Shown: positions 481 to 14,412 of the stretch, piece after piece
How the letters are laid out: each line of letters begins with the position of its first letter
How positions within the stretch are numbered: the stretch's first letter is position 1
Assembly (NCBI GenBank): GCA_031367385.1
Contig: JANLPS010000027.1
Location: 31,650 to 95,649 of the forward strand
Direction: 5' to 3'
DNA: 64,000 nucleotides
From: Archangium sp.
Lineage (GTDB): Bacteria > Myxococcota > Myxococcia > Myxococcales > Myxococcaceae
The notes under the pieces: model-generated
Seen by the model: only the letters and a program-made list of their open reading frames with translations
What the model was told of the DNA's origin: nothing
Databases searched by the model: none
Position numbers and translations under genes: made by a program

Positions 481-3400
481 CTATTTCTTCTCGACCAGCA
501 GGTCGCGGCCCTGCACCAGGTCGACCTCCCCGGCGAATTGGCCGAACGCGTCGTACTTCGCGGGCACGATTCGCGCCTGCGGCACCAGCAGCGTCTCGTC
601 GATGGTCAGCACATTTTCTTTTTGGGTCTCAGCGCGCACGAAGGTGCCCACCGGCCCCGCGAGGCTCACCTGCGGCACCGGCCCCGAGAGCACCCAGCCC
701 TTGGGCAAGGTCATCACCGTGGTGGTGTGGGTGGCCTCGGTCGCGGGCAGAAACAGCGGGGTGCGCCGGCTGCTCAGCATCAGGTATCGCCTCCCCAGCA
801 GCGCCGGGTAGGTCAGCGACGAGACGATCATACGCGAGTCGCCCTCGAGGCGGCCGAAGCGGTGGGCGGTGAACTTGTACGTGACCTTCACCGTCGCGCC
901 GACCTCACGCTTGGCCTCGACCTCGATGCCCTGCATGTCGGCGCCGCCGAAGTAGCGCGAGAGGGCTTGCTGCAAGGCCTGGTCGCGTTGATCAGGCGAG
1001 AGGCTCTCGAGCCCCTCGGCGAGCTGCGCTGCTTCGAAGCCGGTGTAGGTCTCTTCGCCGGTGCCGCTGAGCACGCCGTCTTCAGCGAGCGTGAGGGTGA
1101 GCTTCACGTTCTTGCCCGGCCGGTTGATCGCCGGCGGAGTCTTCACCTTCTCGAGCGGTTTGCCCGGCTCGGGAAAGAGGTAGGCCTCGCGCTCGCCCAT
1201 CGCGAACTCGGGCAGCTCTCCGAAGGGCGCATAGCGAACGAGCGCGTCGAGCCAGATGGGCGCTTGCTCGGGCAGGGTGACTCGCAGGCACACGTACGGC
1301 AGCAGCGCCTCGGCGGGGAAAAGATAGCCCGCCGGGTCTGAGGTGAACGCCCGCACCGCCACCAACCGCGCGTCGAAGCCCAGCGCCGCGAGCGACGATT
1401 TGAGCAACCAGGTTCGGCTGCCCCGGTCTTGCGTGACGCTCGCCGCAGCGGGAAAGGTGAGGCCCGAATCGCGCCCCGACAGCTTGGTCATCACCGCGGC
1501 GTACACGGCCTTCACCGCGTCGACGCCGGTCTTGTCACCGGCCGCCGTGCGAGCGAACTGCTCGACCTCGTGGGTGATGAGGCCCTTGTCGATGAATGCG
1601 TCACTGTAGGCGGTGACCAGGCCCTCGTTGCCTTGCTGGCCCGCGCCGACGCTCACGAAGGGCAGAAACTCGTTGCCGCTCACCGGGCCGCTCGGCTCGG
1701 GTATGTAGGGGCGCACCCGGCGCTCTTCGTGAAAGTACACTTCGTCTTCGGCGTTCACCTTGGGCGGCGGTGACTCCATGTTGTGCGCGTCGACTTTCAT
1801 GCCCGCGCCCTTCGGAGCGATGACCGTGTAGGTGCTCCAGTTGTTCGGCTGCCCAGCGACTTGAAAGTAGAAGCTCGATGAGGTGAAGCCGGGTTGCCCC
1901 GGGCCGCGTGAGGGGTGCGCCAGCAGGTACTCGTATTCGACGAGGTCGCCGACCTGCACGCCGGGCATGCTGATGGTCTCTTTGCCCTCGATGCCTTCGG
2001 GCTCTTGCACGCTGCCGTCGGGCTTGAGCGTGCGCAGCTTGAGCACCTGGGCGCCCTCGGGCAGGTTCACTTCGGCGATCTCCTGAACGCCTTGCTGGTC
2101 GAGCGCCTTTTCGATGATGTGAATGCGGTCGACCTGGCTGCCATCGGGGTAGGCGCGAATCGCCGCCGCGTCGAGCAGAAAGGCCGCGTTCGCCTCTTCA
2201 TTGCCGGGGGCCGCTTCGTAGGCCTTGAGCGCGTCTTGGGTCGAGATGGCGTACTCGGCGAGTGGCTCTTTGCCGGTCTTGGCCCTCGAGAGTGAGCGGC
2301 GCAGCGTGAGGTCGCTGCCGTCGAGCAACAGCGCGCTCTCACGCGCCGCCATCGCTTCGGCGTCGCGACCGGCCAGCTCGAGCACGTCGCCCAATTGCTT
2401 GGCCAGGTTCGGGTTTCGCGGCCATTGCGCGCGCACGCTCTGCAACACCTTCACTGCGTCGTCGAACTTCTGCTGCGCCACCAGCAGCTTGACCAGCGAC
2501 GAGGCGATGACCACCTGGCTTTGATCTCGGTCGAGCAGCTGGCGCCAGGCGCTCGAGGCCAGGGCCAGATTGCCGCGGGCTCGCTGGTGATCTGCCGTTC
2601 GCGCCAGCGCGGCGGAGCAGGTGCTTGTCGCCTTGAGCAAAGAGTCTGCATCAGCGACCGCGTCACGGCGGCGCGCCACGTCGTACTGCAACACGAGTGA
2701 CTCGCAGCTGCCCTGGTAGGCCTTCTCGGCCTCGCGCGCGGTGATGACCGCCTGGGCATCGAGCCCCAGCGCCAGCTCGACCCGCGCCTGCAACTGCAGC
2801 AGCGCCGCGTTCGGCGACTTCTCGCTCGCCCGGGCGGTCTTGACGATGCCCAGCGCGTCGAGCTGCCGGCCGTCGTCGAGGGCCAGCTGCGCGGTCAACA
2901 GCCGGGCCTGAATGAAGCCCGGGTCTTTCGCCAACGCTGCTTCGAGATCTCGCGTCGCGCGGCCCCGGGCCACCTTGGCGAGCATGGTGCGGTCTTGCAG
3001 CGCCATCTCAGCGCGCAGCACCTGCACCATCGGCGCGTTCACGGTCGGGGGCAGGGCGTTCATCATGCGCCAGGCGCCATCGCGGTGCCGGCCGAGCGAG
3101 TCGCGCGCGGCGATGAAGCGCGCCAGGGCTTCGCCACCCTCGTCGAAGAGCTCGCGGTAGACCGCCGGGGCCCCGTCGCGCACCGGCTCACGGTCAGGCA
3201 GCTCGAGCCCCGACCACTTGGGCGCCGGCCCTTGCGCGGGCTCGAAGGTCACCCTCGAGGGCTGCCCGTCGACCCGCACCAGCCCGATGGTCAGAAACCC
3301 CAGCGCTTCTTCTTTCGTCATTCGCACCATCAGGCGGTGCTGCCCCGCGGGCAACTCGAAGTCGCGCACCAGCAGCGTCGGGGCCGGGTGCTGCCAGGTC

Positions 3401-4242
3401 AGCCGCTCGATGACGACCGTGCCGTCGATGGTGACGACGTGGTCCATCGAGCTGGTCGAGCGCACCTCGTACCTGCCGCCCTGCGTGACCGTGGCGTCGA
3501 CGGCGAGCACGTAGACGTCGCCGGTGGTGGGCTCTCCGCCCAGTGAGAAACGGCCGTCGGCGAAGCGAATGGTGCGCGGTTGCAGCTCGCCAAACGGCCC
3601 TCGGCCCAACGCGCTCATCGAGCCGGTGGTCTCAGGCGCCGTGCGCTCACCCGCCGACAGCACGTGCCACGCCGAGAAAGGCCCGACCAACGTCGCGGCG
3701 GTCGGCACGCCCATGTCGAGCACGGTCTGCGCGTGGCGAGGCAGATCATGTCGCGCCTGGTAAATCGTCGCCAGCGACGACCGGAGCAGCTGCGCGGCTT
3801 CAGTCAGCAGGCCCTTCTCGAGCATCGCCGGCACCCGGTCGATGATCAGCTGATCAGTCGAGGCCGCGTTGCCTGCGACTTCGAGCACCACGCGGGCCGC
3901 CGGAGCCGAGAGCGGGTGCCGCGGGTTTCGCTCGCACAGGTCGAGCGCCGCCCCCAAGGCTCGCTGAGGTGAAGCGCTGCGCAGCGCCAGCATCGCTTGC
4001 CCATAGAGCGCCCAGGGCTCGGCGGCCGAGCGCTCGAGCGACGAGTCGAAGCGGGCCCGGGCCTCGTCGGCGTTGCCGGTCAACAGCAGCGCGTGCCAGC
4101 CCGCCAAGGCCAGGGTTCGAGAGTCTGCGTTCGGTTGCGCAGCGGCCTCGTTGGCCTGGTCGAGCACCTCGGTCGGCGGCACCACCCGTCGCACGCAGCC
4201 AGACAGCACCAACACCACAGCCACTGTGAAAAAACGTCGCAT
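481..4242 (-). CDS. Large TPR-repeat lipoprotein with C-terminal DUF3857 / transglutaminase-like / DUF3858-type region
   Basis: 1253 aa. Lipobox LSGC; long helical TPR-like region; motifs RTLKPDG and MPGVQVGDLVEYEY typical of DUF3857. Confidence 0.75.
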   Translation of the reverse strand: MRRFFTVAVVLVLSGCVRRVVPPTEVLDQANEAAAQPNADSRTLALAGWHALLLTGNADEARARFDSSLERSAAEPWALYGQAMLALRSASPQRALGAALDLCERNPRHPLSAPAARVVLEVAGNAASTDQLIIDRVPAMLEKGLLTEAAQLLRSSLATIYQARHDLPRHAQTVLDMGVPTAATLVGPFSAWHVLSAGERTAPETTGSMSALGRGPFGELQPRTIRFADGRFSLGGEPTTGDVYVLAVDATVTQGGRYEVRSTSSMDHVVTIDGTVVIERLTWQHPAPTLLVRDFELPAGQHRLMVRMTKEEALGFLTIGLVRVDGQPSRVTFEPAQGPAPKWSGLELPDREPVRDGAPAVYRELFDEGGEALARFIAARDSLGRHRDGAWRMMNALPPTVNAPMVQVLRAEMALQDRTMLAKVARGRATRDLEAALAKDPGFIQARLLTAQLALDDGRQLDALGIVKTARASEKSPNAALLQLQARVELALGLDAQAVITAREAEKAYQGSCESLVLQYDVARRRDAVADADSLLKATSTCSAALARTADHQRARGNLALASSAWRQLLDRDQSQVVIASSLVKLLVAQQKFDDAVKVLQSVRAQWPRNPNLAKQLGDVLELAGRDAEAMAARESALLLDGSDLTLRRSLSRAKTGKEPLAEYAISTQDALKAYEAAPGNEEANAAFLLDAAAIRAYPDGSQVDRIHIIEKALDQQGVQEIAEVNLPEGAQVLKLRTLKPDGSVQEPEGIEGKETISMPGVQVGDLVEYEYLLAHPSRGPGQPGFTSSSFYFQVAGQPNNWSTYTVIAPKGAGMKVDAHNMESPPPKVNAEDEVYFHEERRVRPYIPEPSGPVSGNEFLPFVSVGAGQQGNEGLVTAYSDAFIDKGLITHEVEQFARTAAGDKTGVDAVKAVYAAVMTKLSGRDSGLTFPAAASVTQDRGSRTWLLKSSLAALGFDARLVAVRAFTSDPAGYLFPAEALLPYVCLRVTLPEQAPIWLDALVRYAPFGELPEFAMGEREAYLFPEPGKPLEKVKTPPAINRPGKNVKLTLTLAEDGVLSGTGEETYTGFEAAQLAEGLESLSPDQRDQALQQALSRYFGGADMQGIEVEAKREVGATVKVTYKFTAHRFGRLEGDSRMIVSSLTYPALLGRRYLMLSSRRTPLFLPATEATHTTTVMTLPKGWVLSGPVPQVSLAGPVGTFVRAETQKENVLTIDETLLVPQARIVPAKYDAFGQFAGEVDLVQGRDLLVEKK

Positions 4243-4490
4243 GTCGAGCGGTGGACATACTCTCGGCCGCCCAGGCTGGCGACGCTTACTTGGCTCGACG
4301 AACGCTTGTTCACAGACTGCGGCGATCGCCGCACCCAGCGCATTTCACCTGGCGGCGTTGACGGCGGTTCGGCTGAGATCACCTCGAAGCCAAGAGCCGA
4401 GCTGCACCGAGCGGAGAGCCAGCTCAGGCTCGGACCGGCGTTCTTCCGTGAAACTAGGCAATGAATTCATGAGGTTAAAAAGCAAAGAAG

Positions 4491-4523
4491 ACACGCAACT
4501 CTCATTCTTGGTTTTCGATAACT
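4491..4523 (+). promoter_or_regulatory. Bipartite motif ACACGCAACT-N14-TCGATAACT, candidate alternative-sigma promoter
   Basis: Near-identical motif with the same spacing at 43403-43435; ends 7 nt before the ATG at 4531. Confidence 0.55.
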
Positions 4524-4530
4524 TAGGACT

Positions 4531-5547
4531 ATGGCGAACAACAACATTACCGGCGCTCGCGCCAATTCAATCACGTCGCTCCCTGTTCAAGATGACTCCC
4601 TCGTTGCGCCTGACCCGCAGCCAGTGGTCGTGGGCTCGGGGCACCCGGGCGCCAGCTCGCTCGACCCGAAATCAAAACCGGTGGCCACCGCGACCATCGC
4701 CGGGGCGACGCCGATCTCCGCCAACGCAGTGAAGGTCACGGGCACCGCGCTCACCGCTGGCGCGGCCACCGAGGCCGCCCGCAATGAATCCTCCAAGCTG
4801 ACGACGCATGGCAAGAACATTGCGGGCGTCGGCAAGTCGGTTCACGGCATCGCGAAGAAAGTGGCGGGCGCCGCAGACGACGAGGCCACAACGACCGACC
4901 GCATGCAAGATGCCGCCGGCGCCTTGAAAGACACCGCGAAGATGGTCAGTGGTTCGACCAAGCTCACCGACAACCTTTCGGCCAAGACCATCAGGAACCT
5001 GAAGGTCGGCGGGTATGGCGCGGGAGCGGTCGCTGGAGCCTTCAATGTCTACACGAACGCGGGCGAGCTGCGCGAGAACCTCGGCAAAGCGTTCGACGGT
5101 GACCCGAAGGCGATCGCCGACTCTTTCAACAACACCGCGCAGATCATCAGCGGCAGCGCCCGAGTCGTCACCGACGTGGCCGACGGGGCGAAGCTCCTGC
5201 GGGTCGGCGGAGCCGCCGCTGTGGTTGCCGGGAAGTCGGTCGTCGGGGTGGCGCTGAAGGCAGCGCCCATTGTCGGCGCGGCGATCGGCACCGCCAAGGC
5301 CACCATCGACATGTTCAAAGACCCGTCGGTCGAGAACGGTCTGAAGTTGGCTGCGAACGCGATCGGCCTCATCCCCCTCCCCGGGATGTCGGCGGTCTCG
5401 ATGGCCGCGGCCGCGGCGCTCGAGAACCCCAAGGTCATGGCCGCCACCGCAGGCGCGGTTCGGTCAGCCGGCAAGTGGGCCTCGGGCGTGGCCGACCGCA
5501 TGGCCGCCAACGCCGCCACGATGGAACCTCTGGGCCTCGCGATGTAA
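4531..5547 (+). CDS. Ala/Gly/Thr-rich hypothetical protein with glycine-zipper-like hydrophobic helices and no Sec signal
   Basis: 338 aa ORF with genome-typical codon usage; disordered Ser/Thr/Pro-rich N-terminus; C-terminal small-residue helices (GYGAGAVAGAFN, AAPIVGAAIG, AIGLIPLPG). Confidence 0.7.
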   Translation: MANNNITGARANSITSLPVQDDSLVAPDPQPVVVGSGHPGASSLDPKSKPVATATIAGATPISANAVKVTGTALTAGAATEAARNESSKLTTHGKNIAGVGKSVHGIAKKVAGAADDEATTTDRMQDAAGALKDTAKMVSGSTKLTDNLSAKTIRNLKVGGYGAGAVAGAFNVYTNAGELRENLGKAFDGDPKAIADSFNNTAQIISGSARVVTDVADGAKLLRVGGAAAVVAGKSVVGVALKAAPIVGAAIGTAKATIDMFKDPSVENGLKLAANAIGLIPLPGMSAVSMAAAAALENPKVMAATAGAVRSAGKWASGVADRMAANAATMEPLGLAM

Positions 5548-5553
5548 GACAAC

Positions 5554-6561
5554 GTGGTGAATCCACTCTCGCTGACTCCGGTGCCGTTGCCCAAGGTCGA
5601 GGCTCCTTCCATCGACGGGCTCATTTTGAAGGTCCCAGCGGCGAAGGTGCCGACGCCTGACGACGTCATGGCGCGCCTCGAAGAGCATCGCCGTGCCCAT
5701 GCCGTCGCGACCCAGAAAAAAACCGGCGACGCCATCGGCCCCTTCGACGAGGTGTGCGTCGACCTGATCGGGTACGCCAACGGCAAGCTCGTGCCCGGCT
5801 CGGCGCAGTTCGGGCTCTGGGTGCGCATCGACAGACCTTTGAGCTTTCCTGAGCTTGCCGCCGCGCTGAAGCTGGCCACTGTGGGTGACGGGCTCAAGGT
5901 GAACCTGACGTTGCCCGAGAGCTTCTTCATTCCCGCGCTCCGCAACACGCCGGCCGTCTACTTGATGGACGTGAAGGAGGCGCAGCACCTCAAGTTGCCC
6001 AAGCTCGACGACCCGGGCTTCTTGGCAAAAATCGGCGGGGCGAAAACCCTGCCCGAGGCGCTCAACAAAATCGCCGAAGAGCTGGGTGCGCAGTTCGCGG
6101 TCGCAGCCACCTTCCGCGCGCTCCACGTCGCCATTGAGTCGGTCGCTGCCCGGGCCGAAGTGCAGCTCTCCCCCAAGCTCCTCCAGCAAGAGCTGTGGAA
6201 CGTGTGGCGCGAGGTCGAAGGGAAAGCGCTCTCAGAACATGGCCTCCTCGGTCAAGAGCAAGTCGACTCCTTTGAGAATTGGAAAGACGACCCCAAGGCA
6301 GTCGCCGACGTCGAGCGCCGGTTGCGCAACACCATCGTGATGATGGCCGTTGCCAAGGCCCACGAGGCCGAGCTTACCCACGAGCGGCTCGTCGAAACGG
6401 CCGTGCGCTGGGTCTCGGTCTTGGGCATCTCCGAGGAGAAACTCGCGGAGTTCAAGCACCAGGACGACGCGACCAAGTCTCAGACTGGTGCGCTGCTGAT
6501 GGAGATCGCCGCGGCTGAGCTGGTGCTCGAGCGCTCGACCCTCTCGTGGGTCACCGCGTAG
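5554..6561 (+). CDS. Trigger-factor-like protein (FKBP-like plus C-terminal chaperone domain) lacking the N-terminal ribosome-binding domain
   Basis: 335 aa. PKVEAPSIDGLILKVP...DDVMARLEEHRR...DEVCVDLIGYANGKLVPGS follows the trigger factor linker/FKBP pattern; no GFRxGxxP motif. Confidence 0.7.
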   Translation: MVNPLSLTPVPLPKVEAPSIDGLILKVPAAKVPTPDDVMARLEEHRRAHAVATQKKTGDAIGPFDEVCVDLIGYANGKLVPGSAQFGLWVRIDRPLSFPELAAALKLATVGDGLKVNLTLPESFFIPALRNTPAVYLMDVKEAQHLKLPKLDDPGFLAKIGGAKTLPEALNKIAEELGAQFAVAATFRALHVAIESVAARAEVQLSPKLLQQELWNVWREVEGKALSEHGLLGQEQVDSFENWKDDPKAVADVERRLRNTIVMMAVAKAHEAELTHERLVETAVRWVSVLGISEEKLAEFKHQDDATKSQTGALLMEIAAAELVLERSTLSWVTA

Positions 6562-6621
6562 CGCTGCTTTGAAGCTGCTCGCTTGTTTGGAGCCCGCAGA
6601 AATCGACGCTACGGTGACCCG

Positions 6622-7194
6622 ATGATTCGGCGATTTCTCAGGCTGCGGTGGTGGGTGCAGCTCGCGATCATCGCGCTCACGCCCCTGGCTGCGATCAACG
6701 GCGCGGTTGTGTTTTTCGGCAATTCGTACGTCTTTCCCTTTTCTCCTTTCTACTTGAGCGAAAAGCTCTCTGCGTTGCGGCAGTACGCGATGCACCGGCC
6801 ACTGTGCCTGTTCTCGGGGCACCCAGACCTGGGGCCGCTGGTGAGGGCCGCTGAGAAGAAGCACGGCCTGCCACCCGGGTTGATGCAGGCCATCGTCGAC
6901 GTCGAGTCGGGCAGCCACGCCCACCGCATCTCGTACGCCGGCGCGATGGGGCCCGCGCAGCTAATGCCCTCGACCGCTGAGCTGCTCGGCGTGCGCGACC
7001 CCTTCGAGCCCTCGCAGGCCATCGACGGAGGCGCGCGGTACCTGGCCACCCAGCTCGCCCACACCCATGACGTGCGGTTGGCGGTTGCCTCGTACAACGC
7101 GGGCCCTGGCAACGTGCGCGGGTTCGTGCCCCGCAACGGGCAGACCGAGTACTACGTCGCCGCGGTGATGGAGCGGCTCCACCGCAAAGACTGA
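6622..7194 (+). CDS. Membrane-anchored lytic transglycosylase (SLT domain)
   Basis: Motifs VES, GAMGPAQLMP and SYNAGPG; N-terminal TM helix. Confidence 0.9.
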   Translation: MIRRFLRLRWWVQLAIIALTPLAAINGAVVFFGNSYVFPFSPFYLSEKLSALRQYAMHRPLCLFSGHPDLGPLVRAAEKKHGLPPGLMQAIVDVESGSHAHRISYAGAMGPAQLMPSTAELLGVRDPFEPSQAIDGGARYLATQLAHTHDVRLAVASYNAGPGNVRGFVPRNGQTEYYVAAVMERLHRKD

Positions 7195-7198
7195 CCCC

Positions 7199-7669
7199 TC
7201 ACGGGTTGTGCGGAGGCTGCTCGCGCACCAGCTCGCCCAGCAGTTTCTTGAGCGCGTCGTTCTCAGCGGCGCCCAGGTCGAGAAAGCTGATGCCGACGCC
7301 CTCTTTGCCCTTGACCCACCGCACCTGCGCCTTGAATTTCGAGCCCACCGGCAACCGGCCAGTGAGCCTCACTTCGACCTTCAGGTCGGCGAACTTCTCG
7401 AGCGCAAGCGAGGTCTTCAAGAAGCCTCCGCCGGCGCCGATGTTGGTGAGCACCCCGGTGCCAGTGGCCGCCGCGGTCTGCACGCTGACCGAGAGGTAGC
7501 ACTGAAAACGGTCGGTCGTTCTGCGAGAGGCCAAAATGTCGGCCATCTGCTTGAGCACCGTGGCCCGCTCAGTGAGCGTCGCCGCGTCGCTCTTGCCATT
7601 GATGGCCTCGAGACGCCGCACCAACCCTGCATATTCGTCGTCACCCGCGCTCCGCGTCTTCGTCTCCAT
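7199..7669 (-). CDS. PilZ-domain protein
   Basis: RRTTDRF (RxxxR), NIGAGGGF, and AQVRW...GVGISF. Start chosen at METKTR. Confidence 0.8.
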   Translation of the reverse strand: METKTRSAGDDEYAGLVRRLEAINGKSDAATLTERATVLKQMADILASRRTTDRFQCYLSVSVQTAAATGTGVLTNIGAGGGFLKTSLALEKFADLKVEVRLTGRLPVGSKFKAQVRWVKGKEGVGISFLDLGAAENDALKKLLGELVREQPPHNP

Positions 7670-7751
7670 GGCCCTCGATGAGACCAAATCAGCCCCCGCC
7701 TCGGCAAGGCGCCGTAACACCCACAGGTGGGTCTGACTCGGCTGGTGGGTG

Positions 7752-7777
7752 AATTGTATTGCGAACAATTGAATTGC
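7752..7777 (+). promoter_or_regulatory. OhrR operator-like AT-rich inverted repeats
   Basis: AATTGT-N7-ACAATT overlapping ACAATT-G-AATTGC just upstream of ohrR-ohr; resembles the OhrR box TACAATT-N-AATTGTA. Confidence 0.7.
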
Positions 7778-7794
7778 TCGATTTTGAAGTCGCG

Positions 7795-8232
7795 ATGACC
7801 GCGCTCCTGCTCGATGATCAGCTGTGCTTTGCCGTCTACGCGGCGTCGCGGGCGATGATCGGCGTCTACCGCCCGGTGCTCGATGAGTTGGGTCTGACCT
7901 ACCCCCAGTACCTGACGCTGCTCGTGCTCTGGGAGCAGAGCCCGGTGTCGGTGTCGCACCTCGGTCTGCGCCTCCAACTCGATTCGGGCACGCTCACGCC
8001 GCTGCTCAAGCGCCTCGAAAAACAGGGCCTGGTGGAGCGACAGCGCCGAGCCGACGACGAGCGGGTGGTCGACATTCACCTGACCCTGGCTGGCAAGAAG
8101 CTGCGGGCGCGGGCGCTCAAGGTGCCCGAAGCGATGCTGTGCCGTCTCAACCGCACCCGCTCCGAGGCCATGGCGCTCCGAGACCAACTTCACCTGCTGA
8201 CGCAGCACCTCACCGCAACCAAGAAAGGCTGA
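7795..8232 (+). CDS. ohrR: MarR-family organic hydroperoxide resistance regulator
   Basis: LDDQLCFAVYAASR, GLTYPQYL, LDSGTLTPLLKRLE, DER; adjacent to ohr. Confidence 0.92.
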   Translation: MTALLLDDQLCFAVYAASRAMIGVYRPVLDELGLTYPQYLTLLVLWEQSPVSVSHLGLRLQLDSGTLTPLLKRLEKQGLVERQRRADDERVVDIHLTLAGKKLRARALKVPEAMLCRLNRTRSEAMALRDQLHLLTQHLTATKKG

Positions 8233-10409: not shown

Positions 10410-10503
10410 GCATTTTTGAAGGTTCGCCGAGCTGTGTTGTCCCAACGATGCGACAGATTCCGAACCTGAATGTTCAAAAACAGTCCCAACGTTGGGACGG
10501 TCG
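10372..10503 (+). repeat. About 130-bp imperfect direct repeat, copy 1 (includes the thioesterase 3' end)
   Basis: Aligns with 11621-11750; contains palindrome GTCCCAACGTTGGGAC. Confidence 0.9.
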
Positions 10504-10529
10504 CTGGTTCGCGATTCGGGCGACCAGCG

Positions 10530-10924
10530 ACCTTTCTTGACGCTCAAGCACTTCAACAACGGCTGCCCCTGCCTGAAGCGGGGAGTCATCGGCGCCGTCG
10601 TGTCGCAGTGGCGCACGGCTTCTCGCTGCACGCCGACACGGCCGTGCACGCCAATGACTCGAGCGTCTTTGTCGATACGGTGCGCGCGGCCCGGTCTGCG
10701 AATCACGCCTGTTTCGACTCGACGATGGCCGCTACGAGTACACACCCAAGAAAGGAGTCACCTTCACCCTGACGGCCGAGGCCTTCGTGCGGCGGATGGT
10801 CGCTCTCCTGCCTCCGGCGCGGCGGCACCTGACGAGCTTTCCTGGCGTGTTGGCCCCCAACGCCTCGCTCAGGCCCCTCGCCACCCAGAAGCCCGAGGCT
10901 CAGGGCCGCTCCTGGGCCATCTGA
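10530..10924 (+). pseudogene. ISCR/IS91-family rolling-circle transposase remnant, C-terminal half, frameshifted
   Basis: AHGFSLHADTAVHAND in one frame, continuing in another as LERLCRYGARGPV...FVRRMVALLPPARRHLTSFPGVLAPN. Matches ISCR-type motifs GFSLHA, RLCRY and LTRFHGVFAPN. Confidence 0.88.
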
Positions 10925-10962
10925 ACAGGCGAGAGTTCAGTGGGTGCTCGATCTTGTCCATG

Positions 10963-10996
10963 TTGCAGATCCCCCTACAACGTCGTTACAATGTAG
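10963..10996 (+). promoter_or_regulatory. Sigma70-type promoter of brnTA with overlapping operator
   Basis: TTGCAG-N18-TACAAT, 6 nt before the GTG; CTACA...TGTAG inverted repeat spans the -10. Confidence 0.6.
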
Positions 10997-10998
10997 TG

Positions 10999-11295
10999 GT
11001 GAAGGCGCCTGAATTCGAATGGGATTCTGTCAAGAATCAGACGAACGTCCGCAAGCACCGAGTTTCGTTCGGAGAGGCTCAAACCGCTTTCTCCGACGAG
11101 CGCGGCTTGCTCATTCATGATCCTGACCACTCCGACGACGAAGACCGCTTCGTGCTGCTCGGCCTCAGCTCTACGAGAAGAGCGCTCGTCGTATGCCACT
11201 GTTACCGCCGTGACGGCGACGTGATCAGAATCATTTCAGCGCGCAAGGCCGACCGTCGTGAACGACTGATGTACAGCCAGAGGTGGACCCCATGA
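10999..11295 (+). CDS. brnT: BrnT-family type II toxin (ribonuclease)
   Basis: FEWDSVKNQTNVRKHRVSF...DHSDDEDRF...IRIISARKA. Confidence 0.92.
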   Translation: MKAPEFEWDSVKNQTNVRKHRVSFGEAQTAFSDERGLLIHDPDHSDDEDRFVLLGLSSTRRALVVCHCYRRDGDVIRIISARKADRRERLMYSQRWTP

Positions 11296-11811: not shown

Positions 11812-14412
11812 ATGACCGGAGATGACGCGCACATCGACGCAGATACTGCCTCAGCCTACGCGGGGCACGCGCTCACCGATGATCAACGCGCCCAAGTCGA
11901 GGAGCACATCGACGCCTGCGCCGCCTGCCGCGAGCTCGTCTCGACGCTGGCCAAGGTCGCGTGGTCACAGACGCCGATCTCGGGCTCGAAGGTCGTTGCG
12001 GTCGACCCCGCGGCGATCTTGCCGCCAGGCACCCGCGTCGGCCCGTTCGAGATCGAGCGCCCGCTCGACGCGGGAGGCATGGGGTTGGTGTACTCCGCGA
12101 CCGATGCGCGGCTCGACCGACGGGTGGCGCTCAAGTGCGTTCGAGAGGCACGCGGTGACTCCGAGCAGCTGATGCGCGAAGCCCGGGTGATGGCCCAGCT
12201 CGCGCACCCCAACGTGGTGCCGGTCTACGATGTCGTCGAGGCCTTCGGGCAGGTGTTCATCGCGATGGAGCTCGTCGTCGGGCGCAGCCTGCGGCAGTGG
12301 CTGGGCGAGCAACCCCGCGGGTGGGCCTCGGTCGTCGACGCGTTTCTCGAAGCCGGAGCGGGCCTCGCCGCCGCGCACGCCGCTGGCATCGTTCACGGCG
12401 ACGTGAAGCCGGCCAACATTCTGGTCGGCGACGATGGGCGAATTCGAGTCACCGACTTCGGTCTGGCAACCTCGGCGGGCGAGGCGGCCTCCGAACAGCA
12501 GGGTTTGCGCGGTACACCCGCCTACGTCGCTCCCGAACAGCGGCGCGGTCAGCCATGCGATGCCCGCAGCGACGAGTACTCGTTTTGCGTCAGCTTGCAC
12601 GAGGCGTTGTACGGCACGCTGCCGGGCAAGCAGCCGTCGAGCGGGGTGCGGGTACCCCGCGGCGTGCAACGGGTGCTCGCGCGCGGCTTGATGGAGGACC
12701 CTGCCGCTCGCTTCGGTTCGATGAAGCGCTTGCTGGTGGCGCTGAGGGCCGCGCGCTCGAGCCGGCGGTGGTTCGTCGCGGCGGTGGTGCTGCTCGCGGC
12801 AGCGGTGGTGATGGCCTACGACGTCGGAGGCCGCCGCGCCGAGCTCGATCAGTGCGCTGCCGTCGCCAACGAGCTCTCGAGCGTGTGGAACGCGCAGGCC
12901 CGGCAAACCGTGCGGGCCTCGTTCGAACGCACCAGGCTCTCGTACGCGGCGCAGACCTTGGCCGGCGTCGAGGCGAACCTCGATGCGTGGACCACCGCGT
13001 TCGATGCGCTGCGACGACGCGCTTGCGAGACCGATTGGCTGCGGCGCGAGACTCCGCTCGAGCGGTTGGGCGCCCAGATGCGGTGCCTGACTCAGGCCAA
13101 TCGCGAGGCCCGCGCGCTGGTGACGCAGCTCAGTGATGCCGACGAGACCGTCGTGCTGCACTCGGTCGCCGCCAGTGAGCAATTGCCGTCGCTCGAGCGG
13201 TGCGCGCAGGGGCCGGTGGTCGCTGTGGTGAAAGGTGCCGATGAGAAGGCGAGCAACGAGCTGCGTGATGCGCTGGCGCATGCCTCGGCGCTGTTCGATT
13301 CGGGGCGGTACGACGCGGCGCTCAAGGAGGTCACGGCGTTGATGCCGAGAATGCCGGGGCCCGCTGACCCCGAGCTGACCGCTCAGGTGCAGACGCTGCT
13401 CGGGCGCGCGCAGGCCCGGGCGTCTGACTACGAGCACTCGAGCCCCCAGCTGCTCGAGGCGATTCAACTGGCCGAGAGCGCGCAGGCCGATCGCGTCGCC
13501 GCTTCGGCGTGGGCTGCGTTGATTCAAAGCGAGTTCTGGCAGGGGCACTCGGCGCAGGTCGTGTTCTTGCGAAACCCGGCCCTCGGGGCCTGTGAGCGGG
13601 CGTCTGATGTGTGGCAACAGACCGAGGTGCTGTTGATGGTGGGAGGCGCGCTGCTGCAGTTGGGGCGCTTGCAGGAGGCGCAGCCGCTCTTCGAGCAGGC
13701 CGTGACGCTGCGGCAGTCGTTGTACGGCCCCAAAGACCGCCGAGTCGCATATGCCTTGTCGAGCTTGGGCAACGCGCTCTCGATGCAGGGGAATTTGGAT
13801 GGCGGGATCGATGCGCACGCCCGCGCGGTGGTGGCCGCCGAGGCATCGCTGGGCCGGCCGCACCCCAACGTGGCGGTGCTCCACCAGAACCTTGGCGATG
13901 ACTATTTGTATGGGCTGCGAATACCCGAGGCGGTCACCGAGCTGCAGAGCGCGCTGGCGGTGCTCGACGCGGCCGGTGAGCCGAAGCGGCGCGAGGTGGC
14001 GATGGTCGCGACCGACCTTGGTCTCGCGCTGCTCGAGGCCGGAGAAGCAGAGAAGGCCCTCACCGCCTTCGAGCGGGCCAACGCCTTGTGGGATGCGCTT
14101 TCGCCCGAGCACCCGTCTCATGGCGAGGCCCTGATGGGGGAGTATCAGGCGCTGGTGCGGCTAGGGCGGGCGGCCAAGGTGACCGAGCTGGAGCGCGCGC
14201 TCGTCTTCGGAAAAGGGCTGCCGCCGTTCGAACGCGGGCGAATCGAGCTGGCCTTGGGGCAGGCCCTCGGCGCGGCGACGACGCCGTCTGCGCGGGCGAT
14301 GGCGTTGGTGAGGCAGGCGATCGAGGGGTTCGCGGGGTCTGCGTTGCCGTTGGTGCAACGTGACGCAGAGCTCGCGCGGCAGTGGGTGGTGATGCACGAG
14401 GCCAAGCGATGA
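11812..14412 (+). CDS. Membrane Ser/Thr protein kinase with N-terminal zf-HC2 (anti-sigma-like) motif and C-terminal TPRs
   Basis: HIDACAAC; GGMGLVY, VALK, HGDVKPAN, DFG, GTPAYVAPE; TM helix followed by TPR repeats. Confidence 0.92.
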   Translation: MTGDDAHIDADTASAYAGHALTDDQRAQVEEHIDACAACRELVSTLAKVAWSQTPISGSKVVAVDPAAILPPGTRVGPFEIERPLDAGGMGLVYSATDARLDRRVALKCVREARGDSEQLMREARVMAQLAHPNVVPVYDVVEAFGQVFIAMELVVGRSLRQWLGEQPRGWASVVDAFLEAGAGLAAAHAAGIVHGDVKPANILVGDDGRIRVTDFGLATSAGEAASEQQGLRGTPAYVAPEQRRGQPCDARSDEYSFCVSLHEALYGTLPGKQPSSGVRVPRGVQRVLARGLMEDPAARFGSMKRLLVALRAARSSRRWFVAAVVLLAAAVVMAYDVGGRRAELDQCAAVANELSSVWNAQARQTVRASFERTRLSYAAQTLAGVEANLDAWTTAFDALRRRACETDWLRRETPLERLGAQMRCLTQANREARALVTQLSDADETVVLHSVAASEQLPSLERCAQGPVVAVVKGADEKASNELRDALAHASALFDSGRYDAALKEVTALMPRMPGPADPELTAQVQTLLGRAQARASDYEHSSPQLLEAIQLAESAQADRVAASAWAALIQSEFWQGHSAQVVFLRNPALGACERASDVWQQTEVLLMVGGALLQLGRLQEAQPLFEQAVTLRQSLYGPKDRRVAYALSSLGNALSMQGNLDGGIDAHARAVVAAEASLGRPHPNVAVLHQNLGDDYLYGLRIPEAVTELQSALAVLDAAGEPKRREVAMVATDLGLALLEAGEAEKALTAFERANALWDALSPEHPSHGEALMGEYQALVRLGRAAKVTELERALVFGKGLPPFERGRIELALGQALGAATTPSARAMALVRQAIEGFAGSALPLVQRDAELARQWVVMHEAKR

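Follow-up and report, generated by a model that had tools for sequence, protein, structure and literature searches.

The window analyzed here, a stretch of 64,000 nucleotides from Archangium sp. (GenBank assembly GCA_031367385.1, contig JANLPS010000027.1, positions 31,650 to 95,649 of the forward strand), carries near its beginning two closely spaced genes on the forward strand, which we call gene A and gene B. Gene A (positions 4531-5547, protein P0001) opens with an ATG and encodes 338 amino acids, and it is followed after a spacer of 6 nt (5548-5553) by the GTG start of gene B (5554-6561, protein P0002), which encodes 335 amino acids with an isoelectric point (pI) of 5.5. The open reading frame (ORF) map agrees with the coordinates and the 6-nt spacing given for the two frames in the original prediction, which had been made from the letters of the window and its ORF translations. 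Both genes are of coding type, with a G+C fraction at third codon positions (GC3) of 0.84 that resembles that of neighboring genes, and they are presumably co-transcribed. Gene B encodes a trigger factor (TF) without its ribosome-binding domain and gene A a basic, alanine-rich protein, and on balance we lean towards the reading that the two form a dedicated chaperone-client pair, in which gene A is the putative client and gene B its putative private chaperone.

Gene B follows TF from the linker onward. It aligns to the canonical TF model (Tig, TIGR00115) over profile positions 102-404 of 410 (5.9e-28, 97.8 bits), a score that falls under the equivalog cut-off of 180.2, and to solved TF structures from about chain residue 112-115 on (1t11_A, 6.1e-10). 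Its architecture consists of a linker, a degenerate FKBP-like head (residues ~48-151) and the C-terminal arms, the last of which match Pfam Trigger_C (PF05698; 3.4e-8, residues 169-324) above the gathering score, while the head aligns to the peptidyl-prolyl isomerase domain of TF (1l1p_A) at 5.2e-4 and returned no FKBP_C match in the Pfam search. Canonical TF shares the linker, FKBP-like and C-terminal domains with gene B, but has in addition an N-terminal ribosome-binding domain with a GFRxGxxP motif, and gene B lacks both: no Trigger_N match was found in it by Pfam, and the pattern G[FY]RxG is absent from all six frames of positions 3501-7300. The profile, domain, structural and six-frame results together uphold the original description of gene B as a TF that begins at the linker.

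A separate full-length tig gene (357.7 bits) lies elsewhere in the same genome, on contig C373, and gene B is therefore a paralog and not a broken tig. Among 22 scanned homologs that likewise lack the N-terminal domain (N-less TFs), Trigger_N was matched in none, Trigger_C in 20 and FKBP_C in six. In an IQ-TREE analysis of 44 rows, which was a quick search with the careful search unfinished, 35 N-less TFs split from nine canonical TFs with full support in the SH-like approximate likelihood ratio test (SH-aLRT 100), and gene B grouped with two copies from its congener (support 100) on a long stem (1.39). Since gene B stands within an old and diversified N-less clade, it is not a recently decayed tig, and the possibility raised alongside the original prediction, that the gene is a recent degenerate copy, is not borne out. 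The congener also holds a second gene-B-like paralog (L030, G001:C102, 717-1652; 40% identity) near a contig start, which is followed by an SBF-family transporter gene and whose open frame runs 200 residues upstream without a family match.

N-less TF paralogs of Myxococcaceae and Archangiaceae have already been described (Wan et al. 2024, mBio; PMC11559001), and the portion of that paper available to us reports that among Myxococcales multiple TF copies are confined to Cystobacterineae, with the N domain kept in one copy only. According to the same portion, the Myxococcus xanthus proteins MXAN_1178, MXAN_1713 and MXAN_6153 do not co-sediment with ribosomes, and they aid the refolding of GAPDH but fail to prevent its aggregation (PMC11559001). 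Their knock-outs are described there as matching the wild type in growth at 30 C and in predation, and as having defects in heat tolerance, H2O2/NaCl tolerance or sporulation that differ between the paralogs, and pull-downs of the three proteins tagged with maltose-binding protein (MBP) as yielding many unrelated proteins, e.g. ribosomal proteins and OmpA (PMC11559001). Judged by its sequence, gene B is a member of this published group of Cystobacterineae, in which lack of ribosome binding has been shown for the M. xanthus proteins only; it is like them in architecture, taxon and clade membership, and MXAN_6153 and MXAN_1178 likewise follow partner genes, MXAN_6152 and MXAN_1177, as MXAN_1713 presumably does MXAN_1712. 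It differs from them in its long branch, in a more degenerate FKBP-like part, and in having an upstream partner from another family, one that is confined to a single genus. A conserved neighbor is not discussed in the available text of Wan et al. ("operon" and "adjacent" occur 0 times each; PMC11559001), and in our literature search MXAN_6152, MXAN_1177 and MXAN_1712 went unmentioned and the three TF genes appeared only in that paper. The chaperone half of the system is thus already known; for a fixed, co-evolving upstream partner and a client-specific reading the literature search found no report.

The association of N-less TFs with an upstream partner is nearly constant. Among the 21 N-less TF loci of relatives for which upstream DNA was at hand, 20 have a basic Ala/Gly-rich gene directly upstream: 18 carry a partner of what we call the main family (hidden Markov model (HMM) E-values of 9e-12 to 1e-122) and two a partner of the gene A type, in this window and in its congener, while the last has an aldo/keto reductase. 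The distance from the partner to the TF gene ranges from -4 (an overlap) to 100 nt. Public contigs gave a further view, with species genomes scanned by the main-clade alignment, a query that biases the set to the main clade, and with all loci falling in Myxococcaceae/Archangiaceae (Myxococcus, Corallococcus, Pyxidicoccus, Archangium, Cystobacter, Hyalangium and Citreicoccus). Of the 80 loci found, 74 are immediately preceded by the partner on the same strand, and upstream sequence is < 400 nt in the remaining six, so that the partner is present in 74/74 loci with enough upstream DNA. This neighborhood survey of N-truncated TFs finds the consistent upstream partner that the original prediction had supposed in tying gene B to its neighbor. 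A second pair is found in the genome of the window itself (L003/L035, G000:C434), where a 347-aa Ala-rich partner (421-1464) is followed with a gap of 0 nt by a 301-aa N-less TF (1465-2370) that is 27% identical to gene B (E 5e-16). In this second pair the C-terminal stretch of the partner is more hydrophobic than in any other (19-residue mean 2.02), and Pfam gives the partner a weak match of holin type at 0.015, below the cut-off. No third gene is conserved across the 35 TF clades (defined at 62% identity), in which flanking families are specific to single clades.

Gene A itself encodes a protein with 21% Ala, 11% Gly and no Cys, with a pI of 9.4. In an AlphaFold2 (AF2) model built from 7 sequences, which is of low confidence (predicted local distance difference test score, pLDDT, of 32.8), residues 1-77 are unstructured and helices follow thereafter. 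Hydrophobicity close to that of a membrane span is confined to residues 230-255 (Kyte-Doolittle 19-residue mean 1.74), at the beginning of a conserved and marginally hydrophobic C-terminal part (~230-309) whose most conserved block is 246-293. Pfam and NCBIfam returned no match to gene A at E<=1, and searches of PADLOC and of PDB profiles were also empty. Its close relatives are few, with five representatives at E<1e-30 among 1.84 billion proteins and three close matches in a set of 5.8 billion, and the family is present in two of the 208 genomes of the taxonomic family, both in one genus. More distant relatives add little: for P0012 and P0014 two metagenome scans yielded no locus, and a common longest contig for P0003 and P0006 (3049) and for P0005 and P0008 (2753) is only a hint of gene-A-type pairing elsewhere.

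The main partner family is better sampled. Two of its members, identified by exact look-up as MXAN_6152 and MXAN_1177, are both annotated "hypothetical protein", and PADLOC, NCBIfam and PDB-profile searches with the family were empty. Its C-terminal ~75 residues are near-invariant (GRFAPGxNVAIAAxD...DPNAS...ATNIPxVSQVGAAVS...) and its N-terminal parts evolve fast. An AF2 model of the MXAN_6152 ortholog (pLDDT 62) is a helical bundle with residues 165-325 at pLDDT 80-90; it has no Foldseek match in the PDB at E<=0.001, and its best VIA-align Z of 7.2 is within the noise of helical models. In the main-family alignment (A1/A6) a short pattern can be seen by eye to occur twice, as (L/A)PG, a few residues, A..D, a helix and D, with one copy in mid-protein (LPGxxxTAxxDIRxAVR) and one where the conserved C-terminus begins (FAPGxNVAIAAxD), and this may reflect an internal duplication. 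Gene A is like the main family in that it is a basic protein of similar length and composition, with an unstructured N-terminus, a helical body and a hydrophobic part towards the C-terminus, encoded at the corresponding genomic position, and it shares its nearest ESM-Atlas cluster with the MXAN_6152 ortholog (0.89 vs 0.94), where the 0.89 is to be taken as a lead only. A likeness of gene A to the main family noticed by eye around "AP...DP..G.K" found no support in hhalign and HMM tests. Partners of the gene A type, confined as they are to one genus, have either diverged from the main family to an extreme degree or replaced it.

Partners and TFs vary together. Their pairwise identities correlate with an r of 0.90 that was reached in 0/999 Mantel permutations (56 pairs), and this co-divergence shows duplication as a unit. 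We regard charge compensation as more telling for a physical relationship. The net charges of the partners are all positive (+4 to +91) and those of the TFs all negative (-1 to -52), with gene A at +6 and gene B at -9, and across pairs the two charges are anticorrelated at each of three increasingly strict redundancy cuts (Pearson r -0.73 for 48 pairs, -0.79 for 26 and -0.80 for 20). When 28 non-overlapping sister contrasts were compared, the changes in charge were of opposite sign in 13 of the 16 informative ones (binomial p 0.011), and in 10 of the 11 with a partner change of at least 5 charges, the exception being a partner cut by a contig end. The predicted complex of gene A with gene B, a structure prediction that the original prediction had proposed for both proteins, passes its three controls, with a median score of 0.68 vs 0.00 for the best control; the mark used for this score was passed by 116 of 157 solved complexes and by 2 of 215 mismatched pairs, and is a rough one since our own alignments were used. 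The modeled interface on gene A comprises residues 56-91 and 230-309, and its tightest contacts join gene A residues 270-280, which fall within the most conserved block of that protein, to gene B residues 190-194, 259 and 286-321 in the Trigger_C region. The model suggests that gene A binds gene B directly.

Binding of this kind need not be that of a chaperone. The acidic TF could instead remain attached to the basic Ala-rich protein as the structural half of a stable two-subunit complex, e.g. a membrane or envelope scaffold in stress or sporulation. Charge compensation across pairs is what a stoichiometric complex would be expected to display, and the modeled interface is large (683-752 contacts). 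The TF scaffold, on the other hand, is known as a transient binder. From the accessible portion of the M. xanthus study, the N-less TFs are not general anti-aggregation holdases and their knock-outs have sporulation or stress phenotypes, which would suit such a complex, but the neighbors are not obviously present in its pull-down lists (PMC11559001), and we consider a permanent complex improbable.

The charge and complex results bear equally on a generalist reading, that of Wan et al. 2024, in which the N-less TFs act as back-up chaperones that divide the general TF workload and adjacency has no client meaning. The many unrelated proteins in the pull-downs and the mild, paralog-dependent phenotypes, as far as the available portion of that paper gives them (PMC11559001), agree with this, as does the one paralog without a partner (L019). 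It leaves unexplained, however, both the charge anticorrelation in sister contrasts and the passing of all three controls by the complex model, and it is at odds with a pair that has been kept over at least 35 TF clades while its surroundings change. We rate it lowest among the explanations weighed here, as quite unlikely.

In the dedicated chaperone-client reading that we favor, gene B would act post-translationally and independently of the ribosome, holding the protein of gene A or helping it to fold as its private chaperone. The C-terminal "arms" of the TF would cradle the conserved, weakly hydrophobic C-terminal helices of gene A, and this cradling would last until gene A reaches its place of action, which is probably a membrane.

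Several observations weigh against this proposal. The available part of the M. xanthus work reports a failure to prevent GAPDH aggregation, which is unexpected for a holdase, though GAPDH is not the proposed client (PMC11559001). WP_011551821, WP_011551822 and WP_011551824 are absent from the published pull-down lists of MXAN_1713, MXAN_1178 and MXAN_6153 as far as these were available (PMC11559001), and the lists do not obviously hold the neighbors, which is soft evidence since MXAN_6152, MXAN_1177 and MXAN_1712 are unmapped to WP numbers; the "hypothetical protein" rows in the lists number 12, including one re-annotated entry in the MXAN_6153 list (WP_216609491.1). One TF-like gene (L019, G018:C251, 1495-2487) is the sole N-less TF without an Ala-rich partner, and gene-A-type pairing is seen in two genomes only. 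Homology between gene A and the main family was not detected by hhalign (probability 1.7%), by the full main-family HMM (5.8 bits, bias 32.8) or by the C-terminal HMM (-0.7 bits, equalled by 211 of 400 shuffles), and the statistics of the main family are therefore carried over to gene A by inference. Adjacent genes that were duplicated as a unit co-diverge regardless of whether their products bind, so that the r of 0.90 is expected anyway. The complex model has limits of its own, in that the partner is placed at pLDDT 36-46 and the overlap in contacts between the three runs falls as low as 12%, and its pass may in part reflect memory of the solved TF-substrate complexes in the PDB. The partnerless L019 is flanked by an aldo/keto reductase gene immediately before it and a NAGPA-domain gene after it, and its branch in the tree is long.

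A gene for a variable protein followed by the gene for its binder is the usual order of effector and immunity genes, and the pair fits it. Accordingly, gene A could be an exported membrane-damaging toxin or a translocator, with gene B as its secretion chaperone or immunity factor, and this is close to what the original prediction had proposed in calling gene A a pore-former-like, secreted protein and gene B a possible immunity factor, for use in predation or competition. The occurrence of several diverging copies per genome (up to five matches in one relative), the combination of fast-evolving N-terminal parts with a conserved hydrophobic C-terminus in the partners, and the burial of the hydrophobic part of gene A in the complex model are all in keeping with an effector. 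Two weaker pointers lie in the same direction: the C-terminal helices of the main-family model give weak superpositions with trios of membrane helices (Z 6-6.8, which is within noise), and a fragment of an RTX hemolysin is among the protein-language-model neighbors at 0.83, which is a lead only. The similarity searches do not lend the pore-former label any support, with no toxin, defense or translocator family matched by gene A in Pfam, NCBIfam, PADLOC or PDB profiles and a gene A model (pLDDT 33) too poor for fold comparison, and the hydrophobic stretches are on the margin of what a membrane span needs (19-residue means mostly 1.3-1.9). Secretion fares no better, as neither a hydrophobic signal peptide nor a twin-arginine (Tat) motif was found at the N-terminus of gene A, and secretion-system, VgrG/PAAR or other delivery genes are not conserved beside the pairs. 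Immunity is also hard to maintain: in the available portion of the M. xanthus study the three knock-outs grow like the wild type at 30 C, which speaks against a role as sole antidote, and such viable mutants with unchanged predation are not easily reconciled with an antidote that is essential or with a weapon used in predation (PMC11559001). Nothing was found that bears on a role in predation or competition, and an effector with its chaperone or immunity factor is in our estimate an unlikely explanation of the pair.

The closest counterpart in theme is PceT, a TF-type protein without a ribosome-binding domain. In Desulfitobacterium and Dehalobacter, PceT/RdhT is described, in the portion of the source available to us, as dedicated to the operon-encoded reductive dehalogenase PceA, with a PceA:PceT ratio of 1:1 in the soluble fraction and with PceT far scarcer than PceA in whole extracts (PMC8905343). 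PceT is thus a TF-derived chaperone that is encoded with a single client and binds this client before membrane delivery, and the pair in the window, in the reading favored here, would be alike in these respects, as far as the accessible part of that work goes (PMC8905343). The client PceA is a Tat-exported cobalamin/Fe-S enzyme that is recognized via its twin-arginine signal. In contrast, gene A has neither a twin-arginine motif nor an enzyme domain and comes from another phylum, gene B has no sequence-level subfamily link to PceT beyond TF itself, and no rdhA-like gene was found within 14 kb of the pair. Because there is no Tat-signal dehalogenase, the pair of genes A and B is not a member of the PceT/RdhT group.

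Tripartite toxin-antitoxin-chaperone (TAC) modules offer a second comparison, as their SecB-like chaperone has as its client an antitoxin with a chaperone-addiction tail. As proposed for gene B, this chaperone is a paralog of a general export or holdase chaperone that has turned private for the product of an adjacent gene; the two cases differ in the chaperone family, and toxin-antitoxin genes are absent at the pair.

So far the N-less TFs of myxobacteria have been regarded as remnants of gene duplication among which the general work of TF is divided. A neighbor that is fixed, co-evolving and charge-compensating likely points instead to one client per TF copy, and the pair would then add, beside PceT, a second and independent case of a TF turned private chaperone. 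The partner family, which is widespread and of unassigned function, is likely the key to the published stress and sporulation phenotypes. A bolder extension, which we regard as doubtful, is that myxobacteria of the Myxococcus/Archangium group possess a multiplied post-translational delivery system for stress survival and sporulation, in which each ribosome-free TF would escort one basic Ala-rich protein that anchors by a C-terminal helical hairpin in a membrane or lipid surface, a counterpart of the eukaryotic tail-anchor targeting chaperones. Genes A and B would be a lineage-specific offshoot of such a system, with a client remodeled beyond recognition.

The 288 nt upstream of gene A (4243-4530, forward strand) separate it from a divergent gene and are presumed, from position alone, to serve as the promoter region for both genes. 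A search of positions 4200-7900 turned up no sigma-70-like site, and a scan there for promoters and terminators likewise returned nothing exceeding shuffled sequence. The divergent gene (481-4242, reverse strand) encodes a 1253-aa protein with TPR repeats and DUF3857/DUF3858, and its position is kept in the congener (L118, 6069-9846).

Downstream of the pair, on the forward strand, lies a gene for a small lytic transglycosylase (6583-7194, likely start ATG at 6622) with an SLT domain (PF01464, 1.9e-19). It begins 22-61 nt past gene B, carries an N-terminal hydrophobic anchor (MIRRFLRLRWWVQLAIIALTPLAA) and is 72% conserved in the congener. We considered it as a third member of the unit and rejected it, as it lies 6.7 kb from the TF gene in the congener and the downstream genes differ elsewhere.

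Two further features of the window, both on the forward strand, were noted. The first is an ORF at 10492-11295, the last ~80 residues of which match the BrnT ribonuclease toxin (6.2e-26); it coincides with a dip in G+C (0.59-0.61) and a low GC3 (0.67), its real gene is probably the C-terminal part only, and an acquired toxin-antitoxin module is possible. The second, at 11812-14412, encodes an 866-aa Ser/Thr protein kinase with an N-terminal zinc finger of the zf-HC2 (anti-sigma) type and C-terminal TPR repeats.

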